Part shown: positions 1,990-63,208 of the stretch, piece after piece | Position numbering within the stretch: position 1 is the first letter of the stretch | How the letters are laid out: each line of letters opens with the position of its first letter | Program-made: the position numbers and the translations under genes | Notes under the pieces: model-generated | Database searches by the model: none | Told to the model about the DNA's origin: nothing | The model's input: the letters and a program-made list of their open reading frames with translations, nothing else | Assembly (NCBI GenBank): GCA_963714975.1 | Contig: CAVQQD010000002.1 | Location: forward strand, 1,024,001 to 1,088,000 | Direction of reading: 5' to 3' | From: an uncultured Gammaproteobacteria bacterium | GTDB taxonomy: Bacteria > Pseudomonadota > Gammaproteobacteria > JAURND01 | DNA length: 64,000 nt

Positions 1990-3176
1990 GACTGCTTCGC
2001 TCCGGACTTGGAATTTTCACTAGAAGCTTCGCTAATGCTCACCGCTGAACCATTTCTGAGCTTAAGCTGACCCGCGGTGACCACCCGGTCTCCTGGTTTC
2101 AGTCCGCGCAAAATGGCGGTTTGTTCATCTCGAGTTTCGCCAACAGTGACGAAAGTTTGGGTCACTATCCACTTGGCCTTTCCATTAACTTCCCTCTCGG
2201 CATTACTCCTTCTCCCCTTGTGGGAGAAGGTGGCCGCAGGCCGGATGAGAGGTGAAGATTTCACTACATAGATTATTTCACCATAGGAATTAAAGCTGAC
2301 AGCCGTTTGTGGCACAGTCAAATAGGTTTGCGGCTTGCCAGTAGTAATAGTAACTGGCGCAAACATACCCGGTTTCAGTTCATATTTAGGATTAGGGAGA
2401 GTTGCTTCTATTTCCACATTACGCGTGGCAGTTTCTACCATGGGTTCAATCGTAGTAATTTTTCCCCGAAAAACTTTGTTAGGCACGCTGTCTGCTGCTA
2501 GGGTTACATTCTGTCCTACTGCTAATTTTTCCAGCATTTGCTGTGGTAAATAAAAATCGACATAAATGGGATCAAAGGATTGTAAATTGACAATCTTATC
2601 TCCTGGATTCAGATATTGGCCTGGATTGACCGCATTGACGCCTAAGCGCCCGCTAAAAGGAGCGCGAATAATTTTTTTATTTACCGTGGCTAGTTGCTGT
2701 GCTACTTGAGCTTGGGTGCTTTTTAAATTTGCAGTGTCGGTATCCAACACGGCTTTACTAACAGCTTGAATGGCATACTGAGCTTTGTCGCGGTTGTAAT
2801 TAATTTCCGCTAAAGTGGCCTGAGCTTGTAAGGAATGTAGCAAGGCAACATCAGTATCGATATTAAGTTCAACCAGTAATTCACCCTGTTTTACCTCAGC
2901 GCCTGGTTTAAAGTAAATGGTGCGGACCATGCCGGCTAATTCAGTAGTCACATTCACACCACGAATAGCCCGAACACTACCCACGGCCTTGAGGGTGGGC
3001 TGCCATTGGGTGTAGTGCGCTATTGCAGTTTCAACCGCAATCGGTTTTCCTGCTGCAGCTGCAGCAGCTCGGCCAGCAATATAGCCCGCAATGGCCTTAT
3101 AAATGAAAATAACGGTGAACAATGCTCCTAAACAAAGGAGCATTAACATCATCCTTTTTTTGATCCGCTCTTCCAA
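1986..3176 (-). CDS. RND efflux periplasmic adaptor (MFP) with an in-frame palindromic repeat insertion
   Basis: N-terminal TM, IRAPFSGRLG and GDRVVTAGQLKL motifs; lies between the outer-membrane factor and the permease. Confidence 0.95.
   Translation of the reverse strand: MEERIKKRMMLMLLCLGALFTVIFIYKAIAGYIAGRAAAAAAGKPIAVETAIAHYTQWQPTLKAVGSVRAIRGVNVTTELAGMVRTIYFKPGAEVKQGELLVELNIDTDVALLHSLQAQATLAEINYNRDKAQYAIQAVSKAVLDTDTANLKSTQAQVAQQLATVNKKIIRAPFSGRLGVNAVNPGQYLNPGDKIVNLQSFDPIYVDFYLPQQMLEKLAVGQNVTLAADSVPNKVFRGKITTIEPMVETATRNVEIEATLPNPKYELKPGMFAPVTITTGKPQTYLTVPQTAVSFNSYGEIIYVVKSSPLIRPAATFSHKGRRSNAEREVNGKAKWIVTQTFVTVGETRDEQTAILRGLKPGDRVVTAGQLKLRNGSAVSISEASSENSKSGAKQS
2208..2254. repeat. Family-A palindromic repeat inside the MFP coding sequence
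   Basis: ccttctccccttgtgggagaaggtggccgcaggccggatgagagg is nearly identical to the intergenic copy at 23738-23783; translated as PLIRPAATFSHKGRR. Confidence 0.92.
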
Positions 3177-3188
3177 AGCTGAAAATCC

Positions 3189-4721: not shown

Positions 4722-4828
4722 TCCTTGTAGACCCCTGAATCAAACCAAGGCCAAGTGTACCAAAAATGTTTACACAATAAAATTCTAGACATACAATTTC
4801 GCTGGTTAAAAGATTAATAATGAGGAAC

Positions 4829-5103: not shown

Positions 5104-5139
5104 ACCCTCTGTAGGGGAAAAAAATAATTTCCCCCCCAC

Positions 5140-5231
5140 TCTCCGTCATCCCTCGCTTCGCTCGGGATGACGGAGAGCCAAGCTCCTCGGGATGACGGAG
5201 AGCCTAACCTCCCTTTTCCAAAGGGAGGGAT
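5140..5231. repeat. Family-B (gtcatccc..cgcttcgctcgggatgac) and family-D (cctcccttt..aaagggagg) palindromes
   Basis: ctctccgtcatccc-tcgcttcgctc-gggatgacggagag hairpin, a partial second copy, then cctcccttttccaaagggagg. Confidence 0.8.
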
Positions 5232-5267
5232 TATTTAATCTAGGGAAGACAAGTCAAGGGCGCAGGG

Positions 5268-5846: not shown

Positions 5847-5903
5847 AGTAATCAACCAAACCTCATAGAATCATGATCCCTTCATAGCCTAAGAGATGAA
5901 AAT

Positions 5904-7574: not shown

Positions 7575-7587
7575 CTTAGGACACAAT

Positions 7588-7704
7588 CCCTTCTCCCCTT
7601 GGGGAGAAGGTGCCGAAGGCGGATGAGAGTCTTTGCAATGGCTTTCAGCGTTTTGAAACACCCTCTCCCGCCTTCGGCACTCTCTCCCGCAAGCGGGAGA
7701 GTGG
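7588..7704. repeat. Inverted doublet of family-A repeats between convergent genes (possible bidirectional terminator)
   Basis: cccttctccccttggggagaaggtgccgaaggcggatgag ... ccgccttcggcactctctcccgcaagcgggagag. Confidence 0.88.
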
Positions 7705-7751
7705 ATTTCCGTGCCACACCACTCTCTTAATTTGGGAGTCATCTAGTTACA

Positions 7752-7973
7752 TTAAAGAAACACCTCTTCTAAGGTGGAAGCCTCAAAAATACGCTCACCC
7801 CACAACAATAAAGTTTCAGCACTTGCCTGTTGAATTCGCGCAAGATAATTAGCAGGTATATGAAGGAAACGACGCTGTAATTGGCGAATTAATAGCTTAG
7901 ATTCACCTTGCTGTATACCTTGTTTGATCCCCTTTTCAATACCAAGTCTCTCTGGAGTAGTAATATATCTCAT
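7752..7973 (-). CDS. Putative intragenic small C-terminal protein (RpnS-like), 73 aa
   Basis: In-frame ATG 7973 preceded by GAGGAGG (7982-7988) at an 8-nt spacing. Confidence 0.55.
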   Translation of the reverse strand: MRYITTPERLGIEKGIKQGIQQGESKLLIRQLQRRFLHIPANYLARIQQASAETLLLWGERIFEASTLEEVFL

Positions 7974-8714
7974 CTGTTTTTCCTCCTCGATGTTTTTTAT
8001 TGTTTGATTGTATATTGGTTCTTGCTCTTTCGGAAGAGCAATAAGCCAATCGATCAGAGTAAATAATTGAATAATATCGCGTTTAGTATAACCCTTTTTA
8101 TACAACTGACGAGTCAAAGCAGTCTTGGCATGTAAACGCGCTTCGCTATCCTGCCGTGTTTTCAGTGCCACTAATTGTGCCAATATCACCATGGCAAAAC
8201 GATTGTTCATGGCTTCTAGTTCTTGCCAGCGCTTTTGATAATCCAATATTTTTATAACTAAATAACGCACTTCCTGATAGGTTCCAAAACATGCTTCACG
8301 GTAATAATCAGTGCGCCAATCTGGATCGTTATCAATTAAAATAGCAATGCTAACAACGGGTAGATTCCAAAAATCAGAAATTCGATACCGATAAATCATC
8401 ATCCGACGCGGTAAGTTTCCTCTCTTAGGATCCCTTTCAACCTCAAGGTGACACAATATTAAAGTTTGTTTTCCATTTTTTCCATGGACTTTGATTAATT
8501 TATCTGCAATGCAATTACCAATTGCCGCATGACGTGTTATTTTACTTAATTCTTTATCAAGTGATTCCCAATTTTTGGACCAATCGATTTGCGTGGCAAT
8601 ATCCGGCAAGCAAAATTCCATAAAATCACGAAAATATAATCCTAAACCGTATTTCCAAGGACGATCAAAATCAGCCCGGGTATTCTTGTTTTTTGTTTTT
8701 AGCTCATGAGTCAT
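7752..8714 (-). CDS. Rpn-like PD-(D/E)XK nuclease/putative transposase with DUF4351-type C-terminus, copy 1
   Basis: DFDRPWK...IDW...LDKEL, ADKL...HLEV motifs; MRYITTPERLGIEKGIKQG repeat; LIRQLQRRF...LEEVF tail. Confidence 0.85.
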   Translation of the reverse strand: MTHELKTKNKNTRADFDRPWKYGLGLYFRDFMEFCLPDIATQIDWSKNWESLDKELSKITRHAAIGNCIADKLIKVHGKNGKQTLILCHLEVERDPKRGNLPRRMMIYRYRISDFWNLPVVSIAILIDNDPDWRTDYYREACFGTYQEVRYLVIKILDYQKRWQELEAMNNRFAMVILAQLVALKTRQDSEARLHAKTALTRQLYKKGYTKRDIIQLFTLIDWLIALPKEQEPIYNQTIKNIEEEKQMRYITTPERLGIEKGIKQGIQQGESKLLIRQLQRRFLHIPANYLARIQQASAETLLLWGERIFEASTLEEVFL

Positions 8715-8772
8715 GAACTCATATTAAAAGAAACAGCGGAATGCACAATACCGTAGTCCCGGAGTTTTTATA

Positions 8773-8809
8773 CCTTCTCCCCTTTTGGGGAGAAGGTGCC
8801 GAAGGCGGA
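8773..8809. repeat. Truncated family-A repeat at a deletion junction
   Basis: ccttctccccttttggggagaaggtgccgaaggcgga is fused directly to the duplicated module at 8810. Confidence 0.85.
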
Positions 8810-8825
8810 CGCTACCCTTGCCACT

Positions 8826-9029
8826 TTATCGACCCAACCTCACTCTTCTCCTCTCACATCCCAAATCGCCACAAAATGCTGTCCTACCACCCCACAATGG
8901 CTGCGAGGATTTAAAGCAGACAACATTCTGATTTGACAATGGAAATACCACGAACGATTGACACGTGAGAGAAAAATAATTGAAGCTGTTTTGCACGGAC
9001 GCAAGATGCGTTAAACTGACTGCAGCCAT
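8826..9029 (-). CDS. 67-aa small protein under putative antisense control, copy 1
   Basis: SD AGGAG then ATG 9029 (MAAVSLTHLASVQNSF...); same length and frame in both copies; sigma70-like promoter upstream. Confidence 0.5.
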   Translation of the reverse strand: MAAVSLTHLASVQNSFNYFSLTCQSFVVFPLSNQNVVCFKSSQPLWGGRTAFCGDLGCERRRVRLGR

Positions 9030-9098
9030 GGTGAATCTCCTTCTTAGATTCCAGTGGTTAGCGTGTGGCCAGGTGTTAGTGCACCTACCACACGCGCC
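9024..9098 (+). ncRNA. SymR-like cis-antisense RNA, copy 1
   Basis: -10 TAAACT (9012-9017) lies antisense to codons 5-6; the predicted RNA covers the ATG and SD and ends in hairpin gcgtgtgg..ggtg-ttagtg-cacc..ccacacgc. Confidence 0.55.
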
Positions 9099-9099
9099 T

Positions 9100-9128
9100 A
9101 TTATCATTAGTTTATTTTAAGCTGGCAA
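9100..9128 (-). promoter_or_regulatory. sigma70-like promoter TTGCCA-N17-GATAAT (also present in copy 2)
   Basis: -35 at 9128-9123 and -10 at 9105-9100, 17-bp spacer. Confidence 0.6.
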
Positions 9129-9173
9129 CTGTTTTTTTAAAAAATGTAACTCTCCAGAGGTCATCTAGTTACA

Positions 9174-9431
9174 TTAAAGAAACACTTCTTCTAAGGTGGA
9201 AACCTCAAAAATACGCTCACCCCACAACAATAAAGTTTCGGCACTTGCCTGTTGAATTCGCGCAAGATAATTAGCAGGTACATGGAGGAAACGACGCTGT
9301 AATTGGCGAATTAATAGATTAGATTCACCCCGCTGTATACCTTTCTTTATGCCTTTCTTTATGCCTTTCTGTATACCTTGTTTGATCCCCTGTTCAATGC
9401 CAAGTCTTTCTGGAGTAGTAATATATCTCAT
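9174..9431 (-). CDS. Putative intragenic RpnS-like protein, 85 aa
   Basis: In-frame ATG 9431 preceded by GAGGAG (9441-9446). Confidence 0.55.
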   Translation of the reverse strand: MRYITTPERLGIEQGIKQGIQKGIKKGIKKGIQRGESNLLIRQLQRRFLHVPANYLARIQQASAETLLLWGERIFEVSTLEEVFL

Positions 9432-10172
9432 GTGTTGTTTCTCCTCGATGTTTTTTATTGATTGATTGTATATTGGCTCTTGCTCTTTGGGAAGAGCAAT
9501 AAGCCAATCGATCAGAGTAAATAATTGCATAATATCGCGTTTAGTATAACCCTTTTTATACAACTGACGAGTCAAAGCAGTCTTGGCATGTAAACGCGCT
9601 TCGCTATTCTGCTGTGTTTTCAGTGCCACTAATTGTGCTAATATCACCGTGGCAAAACGATTGTTCATCACCTCAAGCTCTTGCCAACGCGTTTGATAAT
9701 CCAATATTTTTATAGCTAAATAACGCACTTCCTGATAGGTTCCAAAACATGCTTCACGGTAATAATCAGTGCGCCAATCTGGATCGTTATCAATTAAAAT
9801 AGCAATGCTAACAACGGGTAGATTCCAAAAATCAGAAATTCGATACCGATAAATCATCATCCGACGCGGTAAGTTTCCTCTCTTAGGATCCCTTTCAACC
9901 TCAAGGTGACACAATATTAAAGTTTGTTTTCCATTTTTTCCATGGACTTTGATTAATTTATCTGCAATGCAATTACCAATTGCGGCATGGCGTGTTATTT
10001 TATTTAATTCTTTATCGAGTGATTCCCAATTTTTGGACCAATCGATTTGCGTGGCAATATCCGGCAAGCAAAATTCCATAAAATCACGAAAATATAATCC
10101 TAAACCGTATTTCCAAGGACGATCAAAATCAGCCCGGGTATTCTTGTTTTTTGTTTTTAGCTCATGAGTCAT
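9174..10172 (-). CDS. Rpn-like nuclease with DUF4351-type C-terminus, copy 2
   Basis: Near-identical to 7752-8714; 12 extra residues from expansion of the GIxx repeat. Confidence 0.85.
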   Translation of the reverse strand: MTHELKTKNKNTRADFDRPWKYGLGLYFRDFMEFCLPDIATQIDWSKNWESLDKELNKITRHAAIGNCIADKLIKVHGKNGKQTLILCHLEVERDPKRGNLPRRMMIYRYRISDFWNLPVVSIAILIDNDPDWRTDYYREACFGTYQEVRYLAIKILDYQTRWQELEVMNNRFATVILAQLVALKTQQNSEARLHAKTALTRQLYKKGYTKRDIMQLFTLIDWLIALPKEQEPIYNQSIKNIEEKQHMRYITTPERLGIEQGIKQGIQKGIKKGIKKGIQRGESNLLIRQLQRRFLHVPANYLARIQQASAETLLLWGERIFEVSTLEEVFL

Positions 10173-10229
10173 GAACCCATATTAAAAGAAACAGAGGAAC
10201 GCACAATACCGTAGTCCCAGAGTTTTTAT

Positions 10230-10370
10230 CCCTTCTCCCCTTGGGGAGAAGGTGCCCCTTCGACAGGCTCAGGGCAGGCTGGCGGATGAGGGTGTTTAAA
10301 ATAGCTTAAAGCTACAACAGGACACCCTCATCCGGCCTGCGGCCACCTTCTCCCGCAAGCGGGAGAGGGG
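10230..10370. repeat. Inverted family-A doublet with a nested cccttcgacaggctcagggc motif
   Basis: Paralogous to 7588-7704, including the flank gatttccgtgccac(a)ccactctc. Confidence 0.88.
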
Positions 10371-10426
10371 ATTTCCGTGCCACCCACTCTCCTGCAGCAA
10401 TCCCTGCGGAAAAAGGGATTTGCAAG

Positions 10427-10828
10427 CTACTCCCAAAAATCCGTCTGCCCTTTTTGCACTCCTGCTAATAACCTCGCGCACAATTCATCGGTAAAAGGCT
10501 TATCAAACAGGCCATTGAGTTTTAGTGCCTTGGCTCGCGTATAACAGCTTTCCTCATGCACGGCATGGGCGGACAAGATGACAATCGGCACGTTCGCATT
10601 GCCACTTAAATGCTTACGCATAAGTTGGGCCAGATCGAGGCCATAGTAATCCGGGAGTCCAAGATCAAGTAAGACCAGGTCATAACGATTGGAAAATAAT
10701 TGAATGGCTTGGGTGCCATTCATAGCTAAATCGACTTGGCAGTTTGCTGCAGTGAAAATAGATTCGGCCGCTTTACTGGCCATTTTGTTATCCTCAACGG
10801 CGAGGACTCTGAATTGCTTGGTATTCAT
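10427..10828 (-). CDS. Single-domain response regulator (CheY-like receiver)
   Basis: VLAVEDN, LLDLGLPD, ILSAH and FDKPF receiver motifs. Confidence 0.92.
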   Translation of the reverse strand: MNTKQFRVLAVEDNKMASKAAESIFTAANCQVDLAMNGTQAIQLFSNRYDLVLLDLGLPDYYGLDLAQLMRKHLSGNANVPIVILSAHAVHEESCYTRAKALKLNGLFDKPFTDELCARLLAGVQKGQTDFWE

Positions 10829-10964
10829 GATGGTTTGCTCCTATTGTTATCGTTAAAATGGATTCATCAAACCAAGAAATCTTAAGGAGTAATAGTGGCA
10901 GAGATTAAAGAGATGACAGGGCAGGAAATCAAATCGCTGCCCCGCCACCGCTACCCCTGCCACT

Positions 10965-11168
10965 TTATCGACCCAACCTCACTAGCCTCCTCCCACATCC
11001 CAAATCGCCACAAAATGCTGCCCTACCACCCCACAATGGCTGCGAGGATTTAAAGCAGACAACATTCTGATTTGACAATGGAAATACCACGAACGATTGA
11101 CACGTGAGAGAAAAATAATTGAAGCTGTTTTGCACGGACGCAAGATGCGTTAAACTGACTGCAGCCAT
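10965..11168 (-). CDS. 67-aa small protein under putative antisense control, copy 2
   Basis: SD AGGAG then ATG 11168; differs from copy 1 by 3 residues. Confidence 0.5.
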   Translation of the reverse strand: MAAVSLTHLASVQNSFNYFSLTCQSFVVFPLSNQNVVCFKSSQPLWGGRAAFCGDLGCGRRLVRLGR

Positions 11169-11237
11169 GGTGAATCTCCTTGTTAGATTCCAGTGGTTAG
11201 CGTGTGGACCAGGTGTTGGAGCACCTACCACACGCGC
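11163..11237 (+). ncRNA. SymR-like cis-antisense RNA, copy 2
   Basis: TAAACT at 11151-11156; same two hairpins as copy 1 with changed loops. Confidence 0.55.
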
Positions 11238-11295
11238 CTATTATCATCAGTTTATTTTAATCTGGCAACTGCTTTTTAAAAAAAATTACTATCAC

Positions 11296-12249
11296 ATGTT
11301 AGCAACAGACAAAATTTTTCCAGTAGTTATTTTATGCACCTCAGGATTTGGCTTACTTGCTCCCCAGCTTTTTCTTTGGGCAAAACCCCATATTCCAGTT
11401 TTTTTAGGAATCATTATGTTTGCCATTGGCTTAACTTTAGAAGCTGGTGATTTTAAACAAACATGGAATTTACGTGCGCAAATAGTCATCATCATTATTT
11501 TAAAATATGCATTACTGCCAATGGTAGCCTTTTGTTTGGCAAAATTATTTGGATTAACTACAGAACAATATTTGGGTCTATTAATAGTGGCTAGCTGCCC
11601 AGGAGGAACTGCTGCTGCTGTTATGACCTACCTAGCCCGGGCGAATACCGCGTTAACTGTGGTACTAACTTTTTTATCCACAATAATCTCTCCTTTGATG
11701 ACACCATTGCTTATATTTTTGTTTGTTCACCAAGAAATTATAGTGCCATGGCAAAATATGATGAACACTATCTTCTGGGTCATGTTTTTCCCGTTGATGG
11801 ATGGCCTAATCCTCAGAAAAATAATAGGCACGAAAATAGGGGCTATTAAATCGTTCTTACCTATCCTGGCTATGCTATGTATCGCAATTATCATTGGCTG
11901 TGTCATTGCCCTTAACCGTCAAATGCTATTAGCACTTCCTGTGGCTGCAGGAGCAGCGGTGTTAAGCACCCATCTCTGCGGCTTAATTTTGGGCTATCTA
12001 ATAGCTAAATACATTTTTTGCTGGCACAAAAGTAATTGCCAAGCTACAGCATTTGAATTTGGTATGCAAGATTCTGGAATGGCGGTAATGCTAGCAACGA
12101 AATTTTTTAGTAATGCAGTGGCATTATGTGCTAGCTTGTATAGTCTCATCCAGAATCTATTAGGACCCATAGTCGCACGGTATTTTTCAATGCATAACAA
12201 TAAAGTAGGTTCGGCTTATCCCTTCTCCCGTAAGCGGAAGAAGGGATAA
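11296..12249 (+). CDS. Bile acid:sodium symporter (BASS) family transporter
   Basis: LGIIMFAIGLTL, SCPGGTAA and EFGMQDSG motifs; start placed at ATG 11296. Confidence 0.92.
   Translation: MLATDKIFPVVILCTSGFGLLAPQLFLWAKPHIPVFLGIIMFAIGLTLEAGDFKQTWNLRAQIVIIIILKYALLPMVAFCLAKLFGLTTEQYLGLLIVASCPGGTAAAVMTYLARANTALTVVLTFLSTIISPLMTPLLIFLFVHQEIIVPWQNMMNTIFWVMFFPLMDGLILRKIIGTKIGAIKSFLPILAMLCIAIIIGCVIALNRQMLLALPVAAGAAVLSTHLCGLILGYLIAKYIFCWHKSNCQATAFEFGMQDSGMAVMLATKFFSNAVALCASLYSLIQNLLGPIVARYFSMHNNKVGSAYPFSRKRKKG
12219..12245. repeat. Family-A hairpin overlapping the BASS 3' end
   Basis: cccttctcccgtaagcggaagaaggg encodes PFSRKRKKG before the stop. Confidence 0.75.
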
Positions 12250-12294
12250 TCAACGGCAGCAGGAAATCGCATGGTAATGGAGAGCTCGAAAGCC

Positions 12295-16161: not shown

Positions 16162-16207
16162 TGGTAAGTCTCAGTGAATCAAATCCCATTCCCATTTCCT
16201 TATGCCC

Positions 16208-16260
16208 TGGATCCCGGCATCCATGCCGGGACGACGACAGGAACCGGGACGACGACAGGG
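16208..16260. repeat. Family-C palindrome (ggatcccggcatccatgccgggacgac) with a duplicated tail
   Basis: cccggcatccatgccggg hairpin followed by ccgggacgacgacagg twice. Confidence 0.8.
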
Positions 16261-18577: not shown

Positions 18578-18608
18578 CCGTGGATCCCTGCTTCTTGCAG
18601 GGACGACA
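18578..18608. repeat. Family-C palindrome
   Basis: ggatccctgcttcttgcagggacgac. Confidence 0.7.
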
Positions 18609-18611: not shown

Positions 18612-19373
18612 CTAACTATATAAATTCGTTTGTCCAATATAATCCCACACTTTTGGAGATAAATTATAACGAACAGCAGTATTCTTTTGACATATCTGAT
18701 AACGAACATCAGTAGCAGAAATTGCTAAAGGAATAATGGGCAGGAAAAAAATACACCCCGCAGCCTGTTGATGCAACTGCTGATAATCAAGTACCTGATG
18801 ACGGCTTACCCAAGCTTGCATGTCAGCTCCGATGAGATCCCTCGCTTCGCTCGGGATGACAGGCATGGCGCTCGGGATGACAGGCATGGCGCTCGGGATG
18901 ACAGGCATGGCGCTCGGGATGGCATGTATGTCATCCCGAGCGAAGCGAGGGATCTCATCGAAGGAAACTGGTCTTGAACTAACCACCAAATGGGCAAAAT
19001 CTAAAATGCGCCGCCACTCATACCACTGATCCATTTGCTGCAATTGATCCACCCCGATGATAAAACATAATGGGGTGTCATCCTCTTCTGCCCGAATCGC
19101 CATCAAACTATCAATCGTATAGGAAATATCATTTTCAGCATAAATTTCCCGTTCATCTACCTGTAAATGCGGATGATCCTCTATCGCAAGTCTCACCATG
19201 GCCAAGCGCTGTTCTGGGCTAGCCAACGGCATGTCGCGTAGATTAGGAATTCCAGTGGGTAACAGACGCACGGCTTGCAGTTGCAAGCCATGATAAACCG
19301 ACAAAGCCATATGTAAATGCCCTAAATGGATCGGGTCAAAGGTACCACCTAATAAGCCTATCGGAGAAGACAT
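18612..19373 (-). CDS. nadD: Nicotinate-nucleotide adenylyltransferase with an in-frame repeat insertion
   Basis: GGTFDPIHLGH, SYTIDSL and ISATDVR motifs; downstream of holA. Confidence 0.95.
   Translation of the reverse strand: MSSPIGLLGGTFDPIHLGHLHMALSVYHGLQLQAVRLLPTGIPNLRDMPLASPEQRLAMVRLAIEDHPHLQVDEREIYAENDISYTIDSLMAIRAEEDDTPLCFIIGVDQLQQMDQWYEWRRILDFAHLVVSSRPVSFDEIPRFARDDIHAIPSAMPVIPSAMPVIPSAMPVIPSEARDLIGADMQAWVSRHQVLDYQQLHQQAAGCIFFLPIIPLAISATDVRYQICQKNTAVRYNLSPKVWDYIGQTNLYS
18830..18960. repeat. Family-B element inside nadD: 32-bp inverted arms enclosing three 21-bp tandem units
   Basis: Arms at 18830-18861 and 18929-18960; unit ggcatggcgctcgggatgaca x3. Confidence 0.95.
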
Positions 19374-23733: not shown

Positions 23734-23737
23734 AGAT

Positions 23738-23783
23738 CCCTTCTCCCCTCGGGGAGAAGGTGGCCGTAGGCCGGATGAGGGTG
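23738..23783. repeat. Family-A repeat
   Basis: cccttctcccctcggggagaaggtggccgtaggccggatgagggtg. Confidence 0.9.
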
Positions 23784-23866: not shown

Positions 23867-25546
23867 ATGTTTAAAAGAACTCCACGCTGGTGGTTATATT
23901 GGATCTTTAGTGGGTTATTAGTCTTTGGCGCAGCCGTATTGATCGGTTTTGCCCCCTTCCTTGGTGGAGGATCTTTAATACCTTTATTATTGCCCTCCTT
24001 CGCGATGAGTGCATTTCAACTAAAATTAGCCATTGGTTTAGGAATGACAATAGGTGGCATTGGCCTGCTCCATTTTTCTTGGCGGGGTGGTGAAAAAGCT
24101 CATATCATCACCTCCGGGTTAGCATTTATAGCAACCGCTCTGGCAATTTCTCCCTTACTTTTCACCTCATCCCCTTTAATGGCAATTCCGATTATTTTGA
24201 CCAGCTTTGGGTTACTTCATATAGCAAGGGGAATTTACCAGCGGATAAATGCCATTAAACGTCTAAAAAATATAGCTGCGAAAAAGGTAATATTTGGCTC
24301 AAACGAAGAACTTGTGCCAGAAACAAAATCTGAGGTTAGTTCGAAAAAATCAGTTATCTCCAACCTCTCTGAATTGGCTAAAGCATTGGAATCCTCTCCT
24401 GACATTGAAGAACTTGATTTATCAAATGTTGCTATAAAAGAAAAAAAAGGAAAAAGTTCCTTGCAAATCCTGTTGCAGCAAATTTATCAGACTCCTTTTC
24501 CCAAGCTCAAAAAACTCAATTTAAGTAATCACTCAACTGAAGTGCAACACGAATCCCTAGATAACTATTTGATAGCGTGGGAAATGCAAAGCAACTTGGG
24601 GATCCTACTTAGGAATTGCCCTCAGTTAGAAGAGCTTACCCTGAATAACTGCCGTTTAACTGATGATAAAGTAGTAGGTATCTTAGGGATTTTCCCAAAA
24701 AATTTACCACTCATGAGATTGAACCTACAAAATAATTCATTAGATGAGCTTTTTCTGGGCAAAGAATTTTTCTTAACAGGTGGAAATATTTTTGAGCAAT
24801 TTAGGAAGAAACGTAGCTTGAGTCTTTCTCCACTTATTATAGATGTTTCAGGCAATCCCATTTCACCTCAAACAAAAAGTTGTCTTTATATTAAACAAGA
24901 CCCATCCATTGCTCCAGAAGAGGATAAATCAGAGAATACTCCCACAGACGAAAATTCACCCATTAAATTATTTTCTCAGCTCACAGATTCTCTCAAACAA
25001 GGAAAACTAAGTATCATTCAGCGGGATCAATCGTTGCCACGGCGTTTTTCGCATAAGAAATGGTTATTGTACTTATACAGTCCTCCAGGAAGCATACATG
25101 TACATGTTTATATCGAAGGTGTTCGAAAAAATGGACAGACAGTGCAAAGCTTCATGGATTTAGATGGGGTTGGAAAAGTTGCCGTACGTAATGATTCTTT
25201 GGCTAAAGAAGACGCGTTGCACTCTACCTCAGAACATATCGCTTTAGCAGCAGAAATAGATGCTCAAATAGGTGAGAATATTCTTAAAGAGAACGTTACT
25301 TCTCATGAAAAATCCTATAATTTTTGCTTCTTTTCATCAGTAGCAACGCACTTAATTTCCCACCTAACAGAATATAGTCCAAAAACATGGAAAAGGCATA
25401 ATTGTCTTACTTGGGCTATCGCCGCCCTGGAGAAGCAGGGTATTCCTTTACCTCAAACTGATAGTGTTCTGCCTAATTCTGTAGTGCAAGCGGTGTTAGA
25501 AAATGAAATGGAGGGAATAGTGCCAAAAATTACATTAAGGACCTAG
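23867..25546 (+). CDS. Orphan protein with N-terminal TMs and leucine-rich repeats; candidate secreted effector
   Basis: IEELDLSN, LKKLNLSN, LEELTLNNCRL, LMRLNLQNNSL and IIDVSGNPI LRR units. Confidence 0.8.
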   Translation: MFKRTPRWWLYWIFSGLLVFGAAVLIGFAPFLGGGSLIPLLLPSFAMSAFQLKLAIGLGMTIGGIGLLHFSWRGGEKAHIITSGLAFIATALAISPLLFTSSPLMAIPIILTSFGLLHIARGIYQRINAIKRLKNIAAKKVIFGSNEELVPETKSEVSSKKSVISNLSELAKALESSPDIEELDLSNVAIKEKKGKSSLQILLQQIYQTPFPKLKKLNLSNHSTEVQHESLDNYLIAWEMQSNLGILLRNCPQLEELTLNNCRLTDDKVVGILGIFPKNLPLMRLNLQNNSLDELFLGKEFFLTGGNIFEQFRKKRSLSLSPLIIDVSGNPISPQTKSCLYIKQDPSIAPEEDKSENTPTDENSPIKLFSQLTDSLKQGKLSIIQRDQSLPRRFSHKKWLLYLYSPPGSIHVHVYIEGVRKNGQTVQSFMDLDGVGKVAVRNDSLAKEDALHSTSEHIALAAEIDAQIGENILKENVTSHEKSYNFCFFSSVATHLISHLTEYSPKTWKRHNCLTWAIAALEKQGIPLPQTDSVLPNSVVQAVLENEMEGIVPKITLRT

Positions 25547-27593: not shown

Positions 27594-27627
27594 GAATCAA
27601 TACTCCCCTCTCCTATTTTAGAATTTT

Positions 27628-27736
27628 ACCCTTTGGAAACGGGGGATTAAGGGGAATTTAAAGAGCTTAAGCGCTAATATTGCCTATAAAAAAACCCCCT
27701 ACCCCCCTTTTTCAAAGGGGGGATTTCGAGGGGATC
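27628..27736. repeat. Family-D hairpin pair (cccc-ttt..aaa-gggg)
   Basis: cccctttggaaacggggg and cccccctttttcaaaggggggg. Confidence 0.7.
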
Positions 27737-37801: not shown

Positions 37802-37877
37802 GCTGGCATAGCTCAGTCGGTAGAGCAACTGATTTGTAATCAGTAGGTCCCCAGTTCGAGTCCGGGTGCCAGCACCA
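37802..37877 (+). tRNA. tRNA-Thr (anticodon TGT)
   Basis: 76-nt cloverleaf: GCTGGCA acceptor, CTGAT-TTGTA-ATCAG anticodon arm, GTTCGAGTC T-loop, CCA end. Confidence 0.97.
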
Positions 37878-37992
37878 ATTAAATCAATGCGTTACGATGG
37901 GTTAAAGGCTAAGAAGGCTTAAGGATGGGACAGTAGTGGGGCAGTCAAGAACAACAAACCACAATAAACAAGGAACATAATGAGGAGAAAAT

Positions 37993-38283
37993 ATGCGAAG
38001 GAAAATGTTTGCATCACTAACAATAGTCTTCCTATCCACGATCACTCTAATAGGTAATGCCTCAAATTATTCCACAGAACAGCTAACCTTCACCCAAGCT
38101 ACCGACAGCAGCTTTGCCTACAGCACACCCAAAACCACCTTAGTGGCCTTTAATCGAAACAACCCTATCCACGCAACCACATTACAGCAAAGCGGTTGCT
38201 GCTCTTGGCATCATGGCGCATGTGGCTGTGGCAGTACGGTAATCTGTTGTGATGGTAGTGCCTCTCCGACCTGTGGATGTTGA
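37993..38283 (+). CDS. Small secreted Cys-rich protein (cargo)
   Basis: Signal peptide; C-terminal GCCSWHHGACGC...CCDG...CGC; SD gagga. Confidence 0.8.
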   Translation: MRRKMFASLTIVFLSTITLIGNASNYSTEQLTFTQATDSSFAYSTPKTTLVAFNRNNPIHATTLQQSGCCSWHHGACGCGSTVICCDGSASPTCGC

Positions 38284-38377
38284 GCAAAGCTTATTTACTA
38301 TCTATCATTCATTTGTGGGTCTTGCTTACTTTCGAAAGGCAACTTTCTAAGAATTAAAAGCTCATCTGAGTGGCCTT

Positions 38378-38713
38378 ATGAAAAAAAACAAAAAAATACA
38401 AGAATTATCAGAAAGCTTGTACTGCTTGATATTCTCACCAGCTTGGTTGTCCTTTCTTATTTCAATGGGTTATCTAATCTATAAGGGATGGTTTTGGTTA
38501 AAAAATGGCTATTGGCCTTCTATTACGCTTAGAGACTCCTTAATTAGTGCAAATTTGATTAGCCCTGATTTCTATTTTTATTTGCCAACTTTCAAGGGTA
38601 TAGAGCAAGTATTAAATTCAACTTTAATCTCTTCCGCCATCTTTTTTTACCTTTGCATTTCTATAGTACTATTTTTAATCATCAATGCAATTTTAGAGAA
38701 GACTACCTTGTAA
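38378..38713 (+). CDS. Two-TM hypothetical protein (cargo)
   Basis: 111-aa AT-rich ORF with two hydrophobic segments. Confidence 0.6.
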   Translation: MKKNKKIQELSESLYCLIFSPAWLSFLISMGYLIYKGWFWLKNGYWPSITLRDSLISANLISPDFYFYLPTFKGIEQVLNSTLISSAIFFYLCISIVLFLIINAILEKTTL

Positions 38714-38912
38714 TTGAGAGAGCAAAAGTAGCTTTTATTTGCCCTTCAGTGCCCCTTAATCGCCCCTCACTAAAAATATTAAACCATAATATCTTGATTA
38801 AACTTAACTTTAAGTCAAGTTTAAACTGATTACATATCAGGTGTTGCTTCATTTGGTCATTTACTGTACAGTGCTGCCGATAACAATAATTTAACATAGG
38901 AAGCTGACTCAC

Positions 38913-39992
38913 ATGGCTAATATAGAAAAACGAGTTAACCAAAATCAGGAAATCACCTACCGCGTCAAAGTCAGATTAAAAGGCTTTCCCACCCAAACAG
39001 CTACCTTCACCCGATTGACTGATGCTCGACGATGGGCACAACAAACAGAATCAGCAATACGCGAAGGCCGACATTTTAAATCCACCGAAGCTAAAAAGCG
39101 CACCCTTTCTGAAGCTATCGAACGTTATAAAAAATCCGTCCTCCCTAATAAGCCCAAAAGTGAGTACGACCAAAGGTTGCAACTTAAGTGGTGGCAGGTA
39201 AACATCGGGCATTATGCCCTAGCCGATATCACCCCCGCACTAATTGCGGAACAACGTGATAAATTAGTCAGTTCCACTACTAAAAGAAAAAAGCCTCGCA
39301 CTCCCGCCACTATTAATCGTTATTTAGCGGCATTGAGCCATCTTTTCACCACAGCCATCAAAGAATGGGGCTGGCTAGATGAAAATCCTTTGCGAAAAGT
39401 CACCAAAATGAAAGAGCCACGGGGACGCGTACGAATTTTATCAGATGACGAACGCCAAAGATTATTAGATGCCTGCCAGAAAAGCTCAAGCCCATGGCTC
39501 TATTTGATAATAGTGCTGGCATTATCCACAGGCGCTCGTCGTATGGAGATATTGGGTTTGCGATGGGATGATGTTGATTTAAACCGCGCCATCATAACCT
39601 TGCACGAAACTAAAAATGGCGAACGCCGCATATTGCCGATCACAGGCCATGCTTTAGCTTTGCTAAAAGAACATGCCAAAGTTCGCTCTCTTCATACAGA
39701 TTTAGTTTTTCCAAGCAAAAATTTCAAAAACCCTATTGATCTGCGCACTCCTTGGGAAACAGCAGTTAAAAATGCAAGAATTGAAGATTTTCGGTTTCAT
39801 GACCTAAGGCATAGTGCCGCATCATATTTGGTAATGGATGGTGCAAGCTTGGCAGAAATTGCCGAGGTACTAGGCCATAAAACATTACAAATGGTCAAAC
39901 GATACGCACATCTATCGGAAGCACATACAGCTAAGGTGGTGGCTAGGATGAATGAGAAGATTTTTGGGGGAACAAATTATGCCAACAATTAG
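38913..39992 (+). CDS. Tyrosine recombinase/integrase
   Basis: TGARRMEI (R), TKNG (K), FHDLRH, LGH and RYAHL catalytic residues. Confidence 0.96.
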   Translation: MANIEKRVNQNQEITYRVKVRLKGFPTQTATFTRLTDARRWAQQTESAIREGRHFKSTEAKKRTLSEAIERYKKSVLPNKPKSEYDQRLQLKWWQVNIGHYALADITPALIAEQRDKLVSSTTKRKKPRTPATINRYLAALSHLFTTAIKEWGWLDENPLRKVTKMKEPRGRVRILSDDERQRLLDACQKSSSPWLYLIIVLALSTGARRMEILGLRWDDVDLNRAIITLHETKNGERRILPITGHALALLKEHAKVRSLHTDLVFPSKNFKNPIDLRTPWETAVKNARIEDFRFHDLRHSAASYLVMDGASLAEIAEVLGHKTLQMVKRYAHLSEAHTAKVVARMNEKIFGGTNYANN

Positions 39993-40749
39993 AATTAACC
40001 ATAATAGCGATGTTATTGCCTTATCAGATTTTATACAAAAATTAACAGATTTTAGAGTTAAAGAATATTTTGAAAAAACAACTAACGTTGGCACTGAGAA
40101 AGTAAAAGAAGTTAGGGAAAAAATTTCCTACGAAATTTCATCTGATCTTTGTAGCGCAATAAAAAACTATGACACACATGGTCCACAGCTCTTTCTGAGA
40201 AATAACTATACTCTAGCTCAATTAACCAGAGATGAAGTGCAATCAACTGATTTTGAAAAACTTTATGAGAATCTATTATATACCAGTGAATTGATAACGT
40301 GGTTTAAAAAATATAAAAGGGCTAACTTGGAATTTATTAGCGATAAAAATCAAGATTTGATAGAAAATAAAGTTGATAAATCAAGCGAACCAACTCAAAG
40401 TGATCCTGCAGGACACACAAAAGATCACCCCCTGTCTAGTCACATCAATAAGGATGAGAAGATTAGAAATGAGCAATTATTAAGGAGATCAGCGATTAGG
40501 AGTAATTATGACAAGCTTACTCAGGGTCAATGGCGAGGTATTTTTAATAAAGAAAAAGATAATGGTTTGGCTCAAATGGCCAAAGAATTTTCGGAAAAAA
40601 AGCCGACATATCGGCAACGTGATGTTGAAAATTGGTTGATTCAAGAAAATTACTATACTTGTCTAGAAATTGCAGATTTATCAAACCATCAACTTGTACC
40701 TAAAAACGAAGAAATTAATCACGCAAATATAGCGAACAGGCAATGGTAG
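39979..40749 (+). CDS. Hypothetical protein coupled to the integrase (possible regulator)
   Basis: ATG 39979 overlaps the integrase 3' end; AT-rich. Confidence 0.7.
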   Translation: MPTIRINHNSDVIALSDFIQKLTDFRVKEYFEKTTNVGTEKVKEVREKISYEISSDLCSAIKNYDTHGPQLFLRNNYTLAQLTRDEVQSTDFEKLYENLLYTSELITWFKKYKRANLEFISDKNQDLIENKVDKSSEPTQSDPAGHTKDHPLSSHINKDEKIRNEQLLRRSAIRSNYDKLTQGQWRGIFNKEKDNGLAQMAKEFSEKKPTYRQRDVENWLIQENYYTCLEIADLSNHQLVPKNEEINHANIANRQW

Positions 40750-59730: not shown

Positions 59731-60789
59731 CTACCTCTGCCAACTATATTTCAACCAAGCATTTGACAAGGCCTTGGCTACAGAAGCTAAAGGAAGAGCA
59801 AAAAATACGCCCCAAAAGCCCCATAGCCCACCAAATATCAACACTGCAACGATGACCGCGACCGGATGGAGTTTCATGGTTTCAGAAAATAATAGGGGGG
59901 CTAAAACATTACCATCTACTACATTGATAATTACATAAATAATAGTTAAATAAAGCAAATGGGCATCAAAACCCCACTGTACATATCCCACAATAAATAC
60001 CGGAATAGTTACCAGCACCGCCCCCATATAAGGGATAATATTAGCAATGCCAACTAATACCCCCAGCAAAATGGCATAATTAATCCCCAACAACATAAAA
60101 GCAATCGTGGTAACAAATCCAACCAAAATAATTTCAATAACTTTACCTCGGATGTAATTACCAATTTGCTGATTTACTTCGCCCCATACTTCTCGTGCCA
60201 ACCCACGTTTCTCCGGCAAAAATTGCGCAGCCCAACGCAAAATAGCATCCCGATCTTTCAACAGAAAATAAACAATTAAAGGCACCACTACCAAATAGAC
60301 CACCAACATGACTAAATTCGAGATAGTGCTAATCGAATAAGACAAAGCGCTAGTACCCAAACGGGCTATGTCTGATTGAAAGGTAGTCATCCATTTTTGG
60401 ACTTGTGCCTTAGAAATATAATCAGGATATTCTTGGGATAGTTGAATAATATAACTTTCTGCCAGCTTGATTTTATTGGGCAATTCATTAAGAAGATTGA
60501 CCAGTTGATCCCACACTAAGGGTAATAAGAAAAATAAACCTACTACTAATGCACCTAGAAATAGCAAGAATACTAAATTCGCCGCAATAAAATGAGGAAA
60601 TTTCCATCGTTCTAAACGTCTAACGGTACCATCCAGCAAATAAGCAATCACAATGCTAACAAGTACGGGCGCTAAGATATTGCCAATCAACCAGATGGCC
60701 AAAATAATAACCAATAAAATTAAGGCCAAACTTCCTAATTCTGTTCCAATAAAACGACGCTGAAACCATTGTGATAAGGATTGAATCAT
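59731..60789 (-). CDS. AI-2E family transporter (PerM-like)
   Basis: [23 protein letters not shown] and [15 protein letters not shown] motifs. Confidence 0.92.
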
Positions 60790-61217
60790 ACAATTTGCCC
60801 CAAAGCATGTAGTGTATAAGCGCTATCTACAGCATCCCGACCTTTATGCCCATGTTTACCTCCCACCCGTTCCAGTGCCTGTTGTTCATTCTCCGTCGTC
60901 AAAACACCAAAAATGACTGGAATGTTATTTTCCAAGGCAACCTTTTGACAACCATAGCTCACCTGCTGACACACATAGTCATAGTGATCCGTTTCACCGC
61001 GAATCACTGCCCCCAATGCGATCAACACATCGTAATGATTCTGCCTTGCGAGCTTTTGAGCTATTAAAGGGATTTCAATTGCGCCAGGCACTTGCAGCAC
61101 TTTTTGTGCTTGATTCCCTAATTCCTCTAAGCGTTGTAGCGCCCCCTGGAGTAACCGAGTAGTAATTTCTTCATTAAATTGACTGACTACAATAGCAATT
61201 CTTGGATGGTGAGACAT
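60786..61217 (-). CDS. ribH: 6,7-dimethyl-8-ribityllumazine synthase
   Basis: [26 protein letters not shown] and FGVLTT motifs. Confidence 0.96.
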
Positions 61218-61280
61218 AACTTAACCTATCAACTATGGGGCAAGCCCGTGGATTCATGCCACGGGCGCAGTCTAAACAAT

Positions 61281-62498
61281 TTAGCTCACTAGAGATAATA
61301 AATGACCTAATTTTTTCCGCTTAGTGCGCAGGTAATGAATATTGTCTTCCGTGGGTTCCATTTCAATCGGTTCACGATTTTCAACTTTAATTCCATAGCG
61401 TTGAATTCCTTCAATTTTATTCGGATTATTAGTGAGCAAGCGAACAGACCCCACACCTAATTGCTTGAGGATTTGCGCAGCAATACCATAATCACGCATA
61501 TCTGCGGAAAAACCCAGGGAATGATTTGCTTCAACAGTATCCAAGCCATGGTCTTGCAAGGCATAGGCTTTCACCTTATTCACTAAACCAATGCCCCTGC
61601 CCTCTTGATTCATATATAACAATATTCCCCCTTCCTGCCCAATCTTTCGCAAGGAATATTCTAATTGCCAACCACAATCACAACGCGCAGAAGCAAAAAT
61701 ATCACCGGTGATGCATTGCGAATGGACGCGTACTAAACAAGCAGTCTCTGCGTTAATTTCCCCGCGTAATAACACCAGATGCTGGGTTTCATCAATTTCG
61801 CTTTCGTACACTTTCATATGAAAAGCGCCATAGGCTTTTAAAGGTAACAAAGCAGAGGCAGTTTCCTTCACCAGCATTTCGCGGTTAATACGATAGGTAA
61901 TTAAATCGGCAACCGAAAGAATTGCCAGTCCATGGGTTTCAGCGATCTTAATTAAATCCTCACGCCGAGCCATGGAGCCATCTTCTTTTAAGATCTCACA
62001 CAAAACCGCTGCAGGTTGAAACCCCGCTAACCGTGCCAAATCTACTGAAGCCTCGGTATGACCGGCACGCACCAAAACGCCCCCCTTTACTGCACGTAAA
62101 GGAAAAACATGGCCTGGCATTGATAAATCATCGCTAGTCGTTTGTGGATCAATGGCGACTTGTATGGTTCGTGCCCGATCCTGGGCAGAAATCCCAGTGG
62201 TAATGCCTCGTTTGGCTCCAATCGAAATAGTAAAGGCGGTATTAAATTTTGAGGTATTGCGCTTTACCATGGGGGGTAACTGTAAACGATCGATGATCTC
62301 ACCATCCATGGGCAGGCAGATTAAACCACGACCGTATCGGGACATAAAGTTAATTGCCGCTGGAGTAATCTTTTCCGCAGCAATGACGAAATCACCTTCA
62401 TTTTCACGATTTTCATCATCAATAATGATGACAAACTGACCTTGGCGAAATGATTCGATGGCTTGCTCAACTGTGACGAATAAATTAGGATTTTTCAT
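61281..62498 (-). CDS. ribBA: Bifunctional DHBP synthase / GTP cyclohydrolase II
   Basis: DDENRENEGD, RAGHTEA, RVHSQCITGD..RCDC and LLTNNP motifs; ATG 62498. Confidence 0.96.
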   Translation of the reverse strand: MKNPNLFVTVEQAIESFRQGQFVIIIDDENRENEGDFVIAAEKITPAAINFMSRYGRGLICLPMDGEIIDRLQLPPMVKRNTSKFNTAFTISIGAKRGITTGISAQDRARTIQVAIDPQTTSDDLSMPGHVFPLRAVKGGVLVRAGHTEASVDLARLAGFQPAAVLCEILKEDGSMARREDLIKIAETHGLAILSVADLITYRINREMLVKETASALLPLKAYGAFHMKVYESEIDETQHLVLLRGEINAETACLVRVHSQCITGDIFASARCDCGWQLEYSLRKIGQEGGILLYMNQEGRGIGLVNKVKAYALQDHGLDTVEANHSLGFSADMRDYGIAAQILKQLGVGSVRLLTNNPNKIEGIQRYGIKVENREPIEMEPTEDNIHYLRTKRKKLGHLLSLVS

Positions 62499-63208
62499 TT
62501 TCTTACCCCCTCTCCCCAACCCTCTCCCACCTTTCCCACGTCATCCCGAGGAGCTTGTGACGAGGGATCTCCAGCAACTGGCGGAGATCCCTCGCTTCGC
62601 TCGGGATGACGGGTGCTCGAGTGGGAGAAAGGGGATTTAATTACCTTGGCTATATAGTCATATTCTACATTGACCCATTCCCCAATACCTACATACGCTA
62701 AGTTAGTTCGATCCAAAGTTTCTGGGACCAGCATAACCTCAAAACTTTCGGCATTATCATCAATTTGATTGAGTGTTAGACTAACACCGTTGATAGTAAT
62801 ACATCCTTTAGGAATGAGAAATTGGCGTGCTTCCTGACGAACTCCAGTAAATCGACAAGCAAGGAAATCATGATATTCTTCTTTATCCTCAAGCTGACAA
62901 ACTTGATCGATATGCCCCATCACAAAATGCCCATGCAAACGATCCGTTACCCGCAAGGAACGCTCTAAATGCACTGCAATCCCCACCTGCAAATTGAGCA
63001 TATGAGTCACTTTTAGGGTTTCAGGAGATACATCGCAAGTAAACTGCCCACCTTGGCAGGCGCTAACGGTTAAGCATACACCATCAACCGCAATACTTTC
63101 GCCAATTTCCAAATCAAAATAGGGACATGCGAAGGAAATTTGCTTGCCCTTTCTACGGTTTTTGATTTCAGCCACCCATCCACAATAATCAATATAGCCA
63201 GTAAACAT
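62495..63208 (-). CDS. ribC: Riboflavin synthase with a repeat-derived C-terminal extension
   Basis: MFTG start; GESIAVDGVCLTV, GHFVMGHID and VNVEYD motifs. Confidence 0.94.
   Translation of the reverse strand: MFTGYIDYCGWVAEIKNRRKGKQISFACPYFDLEIGESIAVDGVCLTVSACQGGQFTCDVSPETLKVTHMLNLQVGIAVHLERSLRVTDRLHGHFVMGHIDQVCQLEDKEEYHDFLACRFTGVRQEARQFLIPKGCITINGVSLTLNQIDDNAESFEVMLVPETLDRTNLAYVGIGEWVNVEYDYIAKVIKSPFSHSSTRHPERSEGSPPVAGDPSSQAPRDDVGKVGEGWGEGVRK
62506..62634. repeat. Composite repeat (family B nested in family A) forming the ribC 3' end
   Basis: ccctctcccac-[gtcatcccgag..gatctcc..ggagatccctcgcttcgctcgggatgac]-gtgggaga. Confidence 0.9.

Follow-up and report, generated by a model that had tools for sequence, protein, structure and literature searches.

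Several described families of bacterial palindromic repeats resemble the ones reported here. The CGTC-tagged REPs, which include RPE-4 and RPE-6 of Rickettsia and dRS3 of Neisseria, share with our repeats a tag, a short GC-rich stem, the formation of dimers and a mostly intergenic location. In the source paper (Di Nocera 2013, PMC3733652), in-frame intragenic copies of 8-80 aa are described for many species, with no dedicated transposase, and non-GTAG palindromic repeats are said to lack a known mobiliser. The Rickettsia palindromic elements (RPEs) also form in-frame inserts in conserved enzymes, and 85 of the 728 RPEs of R. felis lie within ORFs according to PMC1166351. They differ in that RPEs of 105-146 bp are described as long single stem-loops and in that the host of our repeats is gammaproteobacterium-like. 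QMITE1 and QMITE2 of Coxiella, a member of a related order, overlap gene ends and lengthen a protein C-terminus in frame, as here, but are MITEs of 150-400 bp with direct repeats (PMC5896051), whereas our elements measure 25-130 bp. In the REP-RAYT systems (REPtrons) a single nuclease gene lies between palindromes that have many gene-less genomic copies, an organization also found below for one of our families, although the REP-RAYT enzyme is an HUH tyrosine transposase and ours is a DUF559 protein of the Vsr/PD-(D/E)XK fold. The Caulobacter CIR and rhizobial intergenic repeats are similarly two-armed, about 110 bp long and provided with a linker.

The stretch of 64,000 nucleotides analysed here (the window) had been noted to carry three palindromic families, A, B and C, and their presence was verified at every position given. 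The 14 A-type pyrimidine/purine hairpins are far above the expectation from 30 dinucleotide shuffles (mean 0.77, maximum 2). A manual catalogue yielded 16 A/B/C loci, 10 of them intergenic (7 A with 9 arms, 1 B and 2 C) and 6 touching ORFs, so that the "more than 10 intergenic copies" of the earlier note holds when arms are counted (12) and not for loci (10). The number of families is larger than three, as hairpin families D and E are also present, the latter a sister of family A with two loci that had been missed. A scan of the window with Rfam returned a tRNA-Thr only and no repeat family. The loci are listed in Table 1.

Table 1 Palindromic repeat loci of the window.
Feature	Position	Strand	Location
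Family A single arm, in frame, ~16 codons in a hypervariable loop	2205..2252	-	RND membrane-fusion protein (MFP) gene, 1986-3176
Family B unit, 25-bp end duplication	5139..5200	-	intergenic
Family E, sister pyrimidine/purine hairpin	5203..5230	.	
Family A inward dimer, empty form	7586..7705	.	intergenic
Family A arm upstream of first Rpn-family gene	8771..8811	+	intergenic
Family A inward dimer, left arm with nested family D hairpin (10255)	10227..10372	.	intergenic
Family A hairpin over last 9-10 codons and stop	12216..12249	+	BASS gene, 11119-12249
Family C unit, CGTC tag, CCA tail, 18-bp end duplication	16207..16260	-	intergenic
Family C unit, TGTC tag, 8-bp stem, 5-nt loop, CCA tail	18585..18608	-	intergenic
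Family B inverted dimer, in frame, three to four tandem 21-bp end duplications	18830..18960	-	nadD, 18612-19373
Family A arm	23736..23783	+	intergenic
Family E sister hairpin dimer	27604..27725	.	
Family A hairpin	48236..48264	.	intergenic
Family A hairpin	51811..51838	.	intergenic
Family C inverted dimer, in frame	56971..57024	+	bioC, 56858-57706
Family A hairpin within longer palindrome, last ~25 codons	57626..57703	+	bioC
Family A hairpin	59693..59724	.	intergenic
Composite of an A-like hairpin arm and a B dimer nested within it, 43 codons at gene end	62507..62636	-	ribC, 62495-63208

We favour, with a probability of about 0.68, the reading that the window's repeats are passengers of the REP/RPE type, family A representing the ends of a DUF559 mini-element and families B and C being tagged REPs. 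They would thus belong to several families of small non-autonomous palindromic elements, whose insertion or copying would largely ignore genes; copies in genes would persist only where the frame is kept, in a surface loop or at the C-terminus. The inserts, their positions and the intact cores of the host proteins are observed, while selection against other copies and the neutrality of the added peptides, which would be tolerated passengers, are proposed.

All six overlaps with coding sequences noted previously exist and lie in open frames, but only three are internal, two are C-terminal and one, in the BASS gene, could not be confirmed as an insertion because distant homologues (31-35% identity) align to the same C-terminal end. 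In the other five cases the claim of new protein segments stands, since the segment is absent from homologues, and in-frame insertion into conserved proteins is what characterizes RPEs. The nadD segment spans 74 aa where 114 of 119 homologues have 34 aa (range 31-42), a net gain of 40 aa, and its flanks show a 4-bp symmetry (6 bp for the intergenic family B unit at 5139). Three 21-bp units in nadD, together with two 41-nt stretches that are 100% identical, are signs of what may be recent local amplification. The MFP loop is 30 aa long, the mode among homologues being 12 (64 of 119; range 5-30), which makes a gain of about 16-18 aa; loops of at least 18 aa occur in 5 of the 119, with unrelated sequence. 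In bioC, the internal dimer, which was identified from its fold, replaces about 7 codons by 18 (net +11 aa) immediately 5' of the SAM-binding motif, giving an N-terminal segment of 27 aa as compared with 16 in 15 of 24 homologues (maximum 20). The hairpin at the end of the same gene brings the tail to 35 aa. Of the 23 homologues in which the anchor motif is present, 22 have a tail of 8-20 aa and one carries 39 unrelated residues; 1 of the 24 is without the motif. The hairpin also contributes an ATG in frame (57687), ahead of the GTG (57720) at which bioD probably starts. The ribC tail, of 53 aa, is longer than in 126 of 128 homologues with the anchor motif (22 of the 150 compared are without it) and measures 14-24 aa in the 12 nearest. 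The ribC element stands where most of the homologues' C-terminal segment would be, and precedes a stop codon overlapping the ribBA start (ATGA).

The models available for two of these proteins bear on whether the inserts were kept for new protein functions. The bioC internal insert is modelled as a helix extension (pLDDT 83-87), and the ribC element supplies a purine-rich stretch ahead of the ribBA start, both of which would speak for such a role. The bioC tail is however modelled as a low-confidence loop, as is the nadD insert (pLDDT <50 at residues 140-163), which is predicted to be disordered within a protein otherwise well modelled (pLDDT of at least 90 at 166 of 253 residues, TM-score 0.92-0.93 to E. 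coli NadD). In addition, every insert is known from one sequence only, the signature peptides being found in 0 of 418 other fetched proteins, and for Rickettsia guanylate kinase an RPE insert is reported to be neutral or slightly harmful (PMC2229807). An adaptive role for these segments is thus considered highly improbable. It is also conceivable that the affected genes are decaying or silent, their peptides never being made or never coming under selection. In the same window thrA (51843-54301) is broken into four ORFs, the ribC element has replaced most of a C-terminal segment, and nadD and MFP retain fewer conserved columns than most homologues do (lower 14-16%), so that some decay is possible. 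On the other hand, all five affected genes are open throughout, keep their operon overlaps and retain most of the conserved columns (nadD 45/49, bioC 42/43, MFP 117/124 and ribC 31/31), all three internal inserts preserve the frame, and no repeat copy was found at the thrA breaks, which makes decay a rather improbable account of the inserts.

The reading as tolerated passengers is also in line with the distribution of the copies. Internal inserts amount to 0.053 per kb of coding DNA, compared with 1.59 intergenic loci per kb (ratio of about 0.03), and being some 30-fold rarer they are better seen as survivors of selection than as targeted invasions; a preferential invasion of genes is not supported. 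That all six overlaps are frame-compatible is correct but weakly informative, as a given frame stays open in 49-80% of shuffled elements of the same composition and frame-breaking inserts would never have been listed as open CDSs. The 3 internal inserts among 16 loci are compatible with the R. felis RPE rate (P = 0.29); counting all 6 gives an excess (P = 0.007), which however counts the tails as well and concerns a window that had been selected for this very feature. Visual inspection of the coding sites revealed no target-site duplication; host codons seem instead to have been lost there, and an empty site is not readable at the DNA level since the nearest homologues of the affected genes are only 50-62% identical. 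The finding of repeats within genes is another example of a published phenomenon: it had been presented as unusual outside Rickettsia, while intragenic REPs are on record for Opitutus (O. terrae), Sphingomonas (S. wittichii), Coxiella (C. burnetii) and others in PMC3733652. The inserts nevertheless call for caution in annotation, and offer a natural test of the tolerance of NadD, BioC and riboflavin synthase to insertion.

Families B and C were compared with the CGTC-tagged REPs, which carry an unpaired CGTC, TGTC or CCTC tag at one end, a stem of 8-9 bp, a loop of 4-5 nt and a CCA tail. Family C fits this description well: its two intergenic units have a CGTC (16207-16237) or TGTC (18585-18608) tag and stems, loops and tails of the expected type, the former with a 9-bp stem, a 4-nt loop and CCA, and with G-T in place of A-T as the first pair. 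Judged on its sequence, family C can be considered a CGTC-tagged REP. Family B has the CGTC/TGTC tag followed by AT, but its stem contains two G/A mismatches, its loop has 3 nt and its tail is CTC; it appears to be a variant, which behaves alike and falls outside the four families. Both would be copied by nick-and-repair rather than by clean transposition, as suggested by the tagged end being duplicated at three loci (with periods of 25, 18 and 21 bp) and by the host codons lost at insertion sites. Plasmid searches gave zero or weak matches for family B and only 2 weak partial matches for family C, and no nuclease gene was found beside 7 fetched B-like plasmid matches. One of the 7 (L133) looks like an integron cassette junction and was set aside as a chance match. 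Neither A nor B carries a GTAG tag, which in the window's repeats is seen only at the outer flank of the bioC dimer, and no RAYT was found among the 30 window proteins scanned.

Family A is of a different kind, with a two-part arm in which a short stem precedes a distinct pyrimidine/purine hairpin, and no CCA tail; this sets it apart from CGTC-tagged REPs as these are portrayed in the text descriptions of PMC3733652. Exact copies of its 30-mer are present in at least 114 GTDB loci with titles from at least 7 phyla (34 of the loci listed have flanks of only ~300 nt), so that the earlier view of the system as the property of one lineage is not supported. The family A arm also matched, at 80-99%, 189 plasmid records, almost all of them rhizobial. 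In one of these loci (L012), a DUF559 gene (Pfam E 4e-44; PDB 3HRL E 3e-30) lies between two inward A arms 373 nt apart, in the same manner as the empty dimers of the window bracket a spacer; in four empty dimers the gap measures 35-83 nt. In another (L033), a remnant resembling DUF559 (E 5e-4) adjoins the A match. Family A thus has terminal inverted repeats in common with a gene-bearing element, as MITEs do, while the gene between its arms is DUF559 and not a DDE transposase. DUF559 has been grouped with Vsr and 3HRL (PMC3424549).

The association was also approached from DUF559 genes collected by protein search. A hairpin was found within 220 nt of the gene in 15 of 16 loci, compared with 148 of 1600 shuffles and 20 of 220 other ORFs, by a rule that was set after viewing the flanks of these 16 loci. 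Of 6 loci fetched once the rule was fixed, 5 had a hairpin, giving 20 of 22 in total against 20 of 220 for the control ORFs; the 22 were hand-picked from 36 records, with congeners among them, and the control ORFs were drawn from different genomes. By the same rule, 10 of the 22 (6 of 16 and 4 of 6) have the gene enclosed by inverted arms. The family A profile of the window exceeded 12 bits in only 2 of the first 16 loci, the others having sister hairpins. The earlier proposal to look for a repeat-flanked DUF559 nuclease was thus right for family A. To our knowledge, DUF559 has no assigned role. No literature linking DUF559 to flanking palindromes was found, in a search that covered few subscription journals and included PMC3424549 and PMC3239194; work on nuclease-associated interspersed palindromes may already cover the link.

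The mini-element would consist of an arm, a gene for DUF559, a Vsr-like endonuclease, and an inverted arm, and the empty dimers, single arms and bare hairpins of the window would have arisen through the action in trans of a DUF559 nuclease whose gene lies elsewhere or has been lost. This agrees with the earlier statement that no cognate mobilising gene is evident in the window: its six frames gave no match to a profile built from 16 DUF559 sequences, and neither DUF559, GIY-YIG nor RAYT was found with Pfam and NCBIfam in the 30 proteins scanned, out of ~65 window genes, the rest being read by eye. A GIY-YIG motif, sought as the mark of a nuclease for families B and C, was not found in loci L001-L115. 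The architecture and the co-location are seen in the sequences of other genomes, whereas mobilisation of family A by DUF559 is inferred. The hairpins could instead be RNA elements of the host (terminators or stabilisers) spread by gene conversion and replication slippage, with DUF559 genes simply landing in them or next to them. Several bare hairpins, as at 12216 and 51811, do occupy the 3' end of a gene or the space separating two convergent genes, many REPs are argued to act on RNA in PMC3733652, and a DUF559 gene or remnant was found in only 2 of the 114 A loci among the matches listed (1 intact, 1 remnant). The inverted arms that flank DUF559 both in L012 and, by the hairpin rule, in 10 of the 22 DUF559 loci, the need for horizontal spread to explain the same 30-mer across phyla, and mid-gene inserts with no terminator role all speak against this, and we regard it as unlikely.

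The window does contain two nuclease genes of the Rpn family (DUF4351; 7752-8714 and 9174-10172, assigned by features with a score of 0.98). Each has an A arm ~56 nt upstream and the pair is flanked by two A dimers, which could suggest that they mobilise family A. The upstream arm is however part of a 1.1-kb duplication (93% identity) that also covers the Rpn gene, and zero Rpn homologues were found in the 114 A loci listed from other genomes, so that we see very little chance of the Rpn genes being the mobilisers. With DUF559 as the preferred candidate, we tentatively suggest, and hold it somewhat short of an even chance, that family A and its sister hairpins are the non-autonomous ends of a widespread and undescribed class of mini mobile elements driven by a single DUF559/Vsr-like endonuclease, and a source of peptide inserts across phyla. 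If true, the DUF559 element would be the PD-(D/E)XK counterpart of REP-RAYT. As the nuclease gene is bracketed by arms that litter genomes, a direct biochemical test is at hand; this prospect is confined to family A and its sisters and does not extend to families B and C, which are of the CGTC type.

Such elements could sit inside genes, since their arms are open in most frames, either empty, as in the window, or whole, as in a DNA methyltransferase gene (L142) that contains the entire element in frame, arms included. Among 40 long ORFs that span an A match in loci with longer flanks from other genomes, only 3 were counted, because 26 were without a Pfam family and in 11 the repeat preceded the first match. 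In-frame family A inserts are found in other phyla also, in RNase HII (L030, +43 aa), in a glycerate kinase (L068) and in a methyltransferase (L047).

The motifs of families A, B and C were recovered where the earlier note had placed them in the window (42% GC and about 88% coding). The source is probably an uncultured gammaproteobacterium allied to Legionella or Coxiella but distinct from both. The catalogue holds 16 A/B/C loci, 10 of them intergenic and six touching ORFs, and A-type hairpins were observed 14 times, compared with 0.77 in shuffles. A sister family of pyrimidine/purine hairpins occupies two loci beyond these 16. Composite loci are numerous: at ribC, B is nested within an A-like arm, and one family A locus encloses an additional hairpin. 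The two family A dimers have an arm-spacer-inverted arm layout. Counting the sister family and the nested hairpin, at least three further palindrome types were noticed (Table).

The earlier note's observation of six coding occurrences is real but overstated: three are internal, two are terminal and one, at BASS, is unconfirmed. In nadD, alignment gives a net gain of 40 aa over 114 of 119 homologues; as the element spans 44–45 codons, approximately five host codons are missing. In the NadD model the fold is kept (TM 0.92–0.93 over the E. coli chain) and the insert forms a loop of low confidence. The 16-codon arm in the membrane-fusion protein MFP, whose named matches are from Legionellaceae (54–58%), sits in a loop of 5–30 aa (mode 12, 119 homologues). 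Inside bioC, approximately seven codons are replaced by 18 (net +11), which extends a helix in the predicted structure, while its end carries 35 residues past the last motif (8–20 in 22 of 23 homologues). The end of ribC has 53 residues, compared with 14–24 among the 12 nearest homologues, and its stop overlaps the ribBA start; the element has therefore probably entered just 5′ of the native coupled stop, displacing part of the C-terminal segment. For BASS, the hairpin is confined to the last 9–10 codons, and the insertion remains a candidate because family models stop at residue 357–358 of 376 and distant homologues align through to the end. Conserved columns are mostly retained in nadD (45/49), bioC (42/43), MFP (117/124) and ribC (31/31).

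The elements are indeed open in frame, as the earlier note had stated, but this is no sign of gene targeting: at 63–69% GC, shuffled elements leave a given frame open 49–80% of the time. Internal inserts per kb reach 0.03 times the intergenic density (0.07 times with tails included). Taken together, the open shuffles and the low intragenic density give no evidence for a system aimed at genes, and the pattern is as expected when insertion is untargeted and purifying selection acts on it. The nadD element repeats a 21-bp unit that combines the tagged end with neighbouring bases, and two 41-nt stretches in it are identical. Similar end duplications occur elsewhere (Table), their length being recorded as a multiple of three only in the coding copy, and flank symmetry extends beyond the core by 4 bp at nadD and 6 bp at 5139. 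Such duplications and symmetric flanks may be the products of nicking near the hairpin, followed by template-switch repair.

Behaviour of this kind is already known outside Rickettsia. PMC3733652 describes intragenic REPs for numerous species other than Rickettsia, among them four CGTC cases in C. burnetii, and presents CGTC elements as lacking a dedicated transposase. Fusions within proteins and at their ends have been reviewed for several genera (PMC2229807, PMC3184786), a C-terminal extension by a repeat element is reported in Coxiella (PMC5896051), and 85 of 728 RPEs lie within ORFs (PMC1166351). Going by the definition in the text of PMC3733652, family C has the CGTC/TGTC tag, short stem and CCA tail of CGTC REPs, family B shares the tag but differs in stem and tail, and family A falls outside the class.

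The exact family A 30-mer occurs at no fewer than 114 GTDB loci, the matches listed covering Planctomycetota, Verrucomicrobiota, Patescibacteria, Acidobacteriota, Elusimicrobiota, Chloroflexota and Proteobacteria according to record titles; 189 plasmid records, most of them rhizobial, also match the arm. Three of 40 scanned long ORFs spanning family A have a family match that crosses the repeat or flanks it on both sides: an RNase HII from a Patescibacteria genome (+43 aa relative to the PDB chain), a glycerate kinase and a DNA methyltransferase. The ability to insert in frame thus belongs to the element and is not specific to the window's lineage as had been proposed. In one Planctomycetales MAG, A arms form tandem arrays (L014, L024 and L053), with six exact matches spaced by approximately 147 bp in L014.

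In line with the lack of a cognate mobilising gene stated earlier, the window contains no DUF559 gene. The suggested search for repeat-flanked DUF559 genes gave a positive result in other genomes: locus L012 carries a 114-aa DUF559 gene bracketed by two inward A arms, which is the layout of the window's dimers with the gene replacing the spacer, and L033 holds a DUF559 remnant. Among the matches listed, DUF559 is absent at 112 of 114 family A loci. The reverse search of plasmids with the L012 protein returned 36 records, of which 22 were fetched. A pyrimidine/purine hairpin lies within 220 nt of the gene in 15 of the first 16 loci (both sides in six), under a rule set post hoc on loci that include congeners, compared with 148 of 1600 shuffles and, among control ORFs taken from other genomes, 20 of 220. 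For loci fetched once the rule was fixed, it is found in five of six (both sides in four). The window's family A itself is strictly matched in two of the 16. In L142 (NZ_CP112876.1), a complete arm-DUF559-arm element with translated arms lies in frame within a DNA methyltransferase gene. A complete element also appears to interrupt a similar gene in L124 (CP101716.1), beside an annotated PglX fragment. Since PMC3424549 places DUF559 in a group with Vsr endonucleases and a homing endonuclease with a Vsr fold is known (PMC3239194), it is plausible by analogy that DUF559 mobilises the arms. The DUF559 element, a candidate autonomous form of family A, is what this analysis adds. A literature search of incomplete coverage found no paper on DUF559 with flanking palindromes, and related work may exist; we put the probability that DUF559 mobilises the arms and that this is so far undescribed at roughly 0.4. 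For families B and C, the searches made here found no partner gene.

Repeat loci and other features of the window
Feature	Position	Strand	Details
Family A dimers	7586; 10227		
End duplications	5161/5186; 16225/16243		25 bp; 18 bp
Further hairpin	10255-10275		Nested in A arm
Sister family (C-run/G-run)	5203-5230; 27604-27725		
Further hairpin	61244-61266		Isolated, GC-rich
Rpn region	7586-11284		Two directly repeated A dimers enclose a pair of Rpn-family genes (93% identity across 1.1 kb, upstream DNA included) and 336 bp copied from the BASS 5′ region
Large protein	23867-25546		No Pfam or NCBIfam match; hydrophobic N-terminus, leucine-rich-repeat-like stretches (by eye)
Large protein	58389-59603		No Pfam or NCBIfam match
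Integrated element	37802-43780		At tRNA-Thr
Tyrosine integrase	38913-39992		In integrated element
Bro-N gene	42765-43589		In integrated element
tRNA 3′-end repeat	43731		50 bp; RhuM-family gene follows
MITE-like palindrome	46059-46286		228 bp; perfect 53-bp terminal inverted repeats, internal hairpins; single copy in window
thrA-like gene	51843-54301	-	Aspartokinase/homoserine dehydrogenase, named from its translation; three frameshifts, four ORFs; no repeat at breaks
In-frame ATG	57687		From A element at bioC end, purine-rich leader; could lengthen BioD by 11 residues, upstream of likely GTG start at 57720
DUF29 gene	63215-63655	-	Between ribD and ribC in riboflavin operon; small hairpin upstream

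As for the other features, the thrA-like gene is either a pseudogene or an assembly error, and the Rpn region looks like a local duplication mediated by repeats. The sister C-run/G-run family of the window resembles the sequences flanking DUF559 genes in cyanobacteria and Photobacterium.
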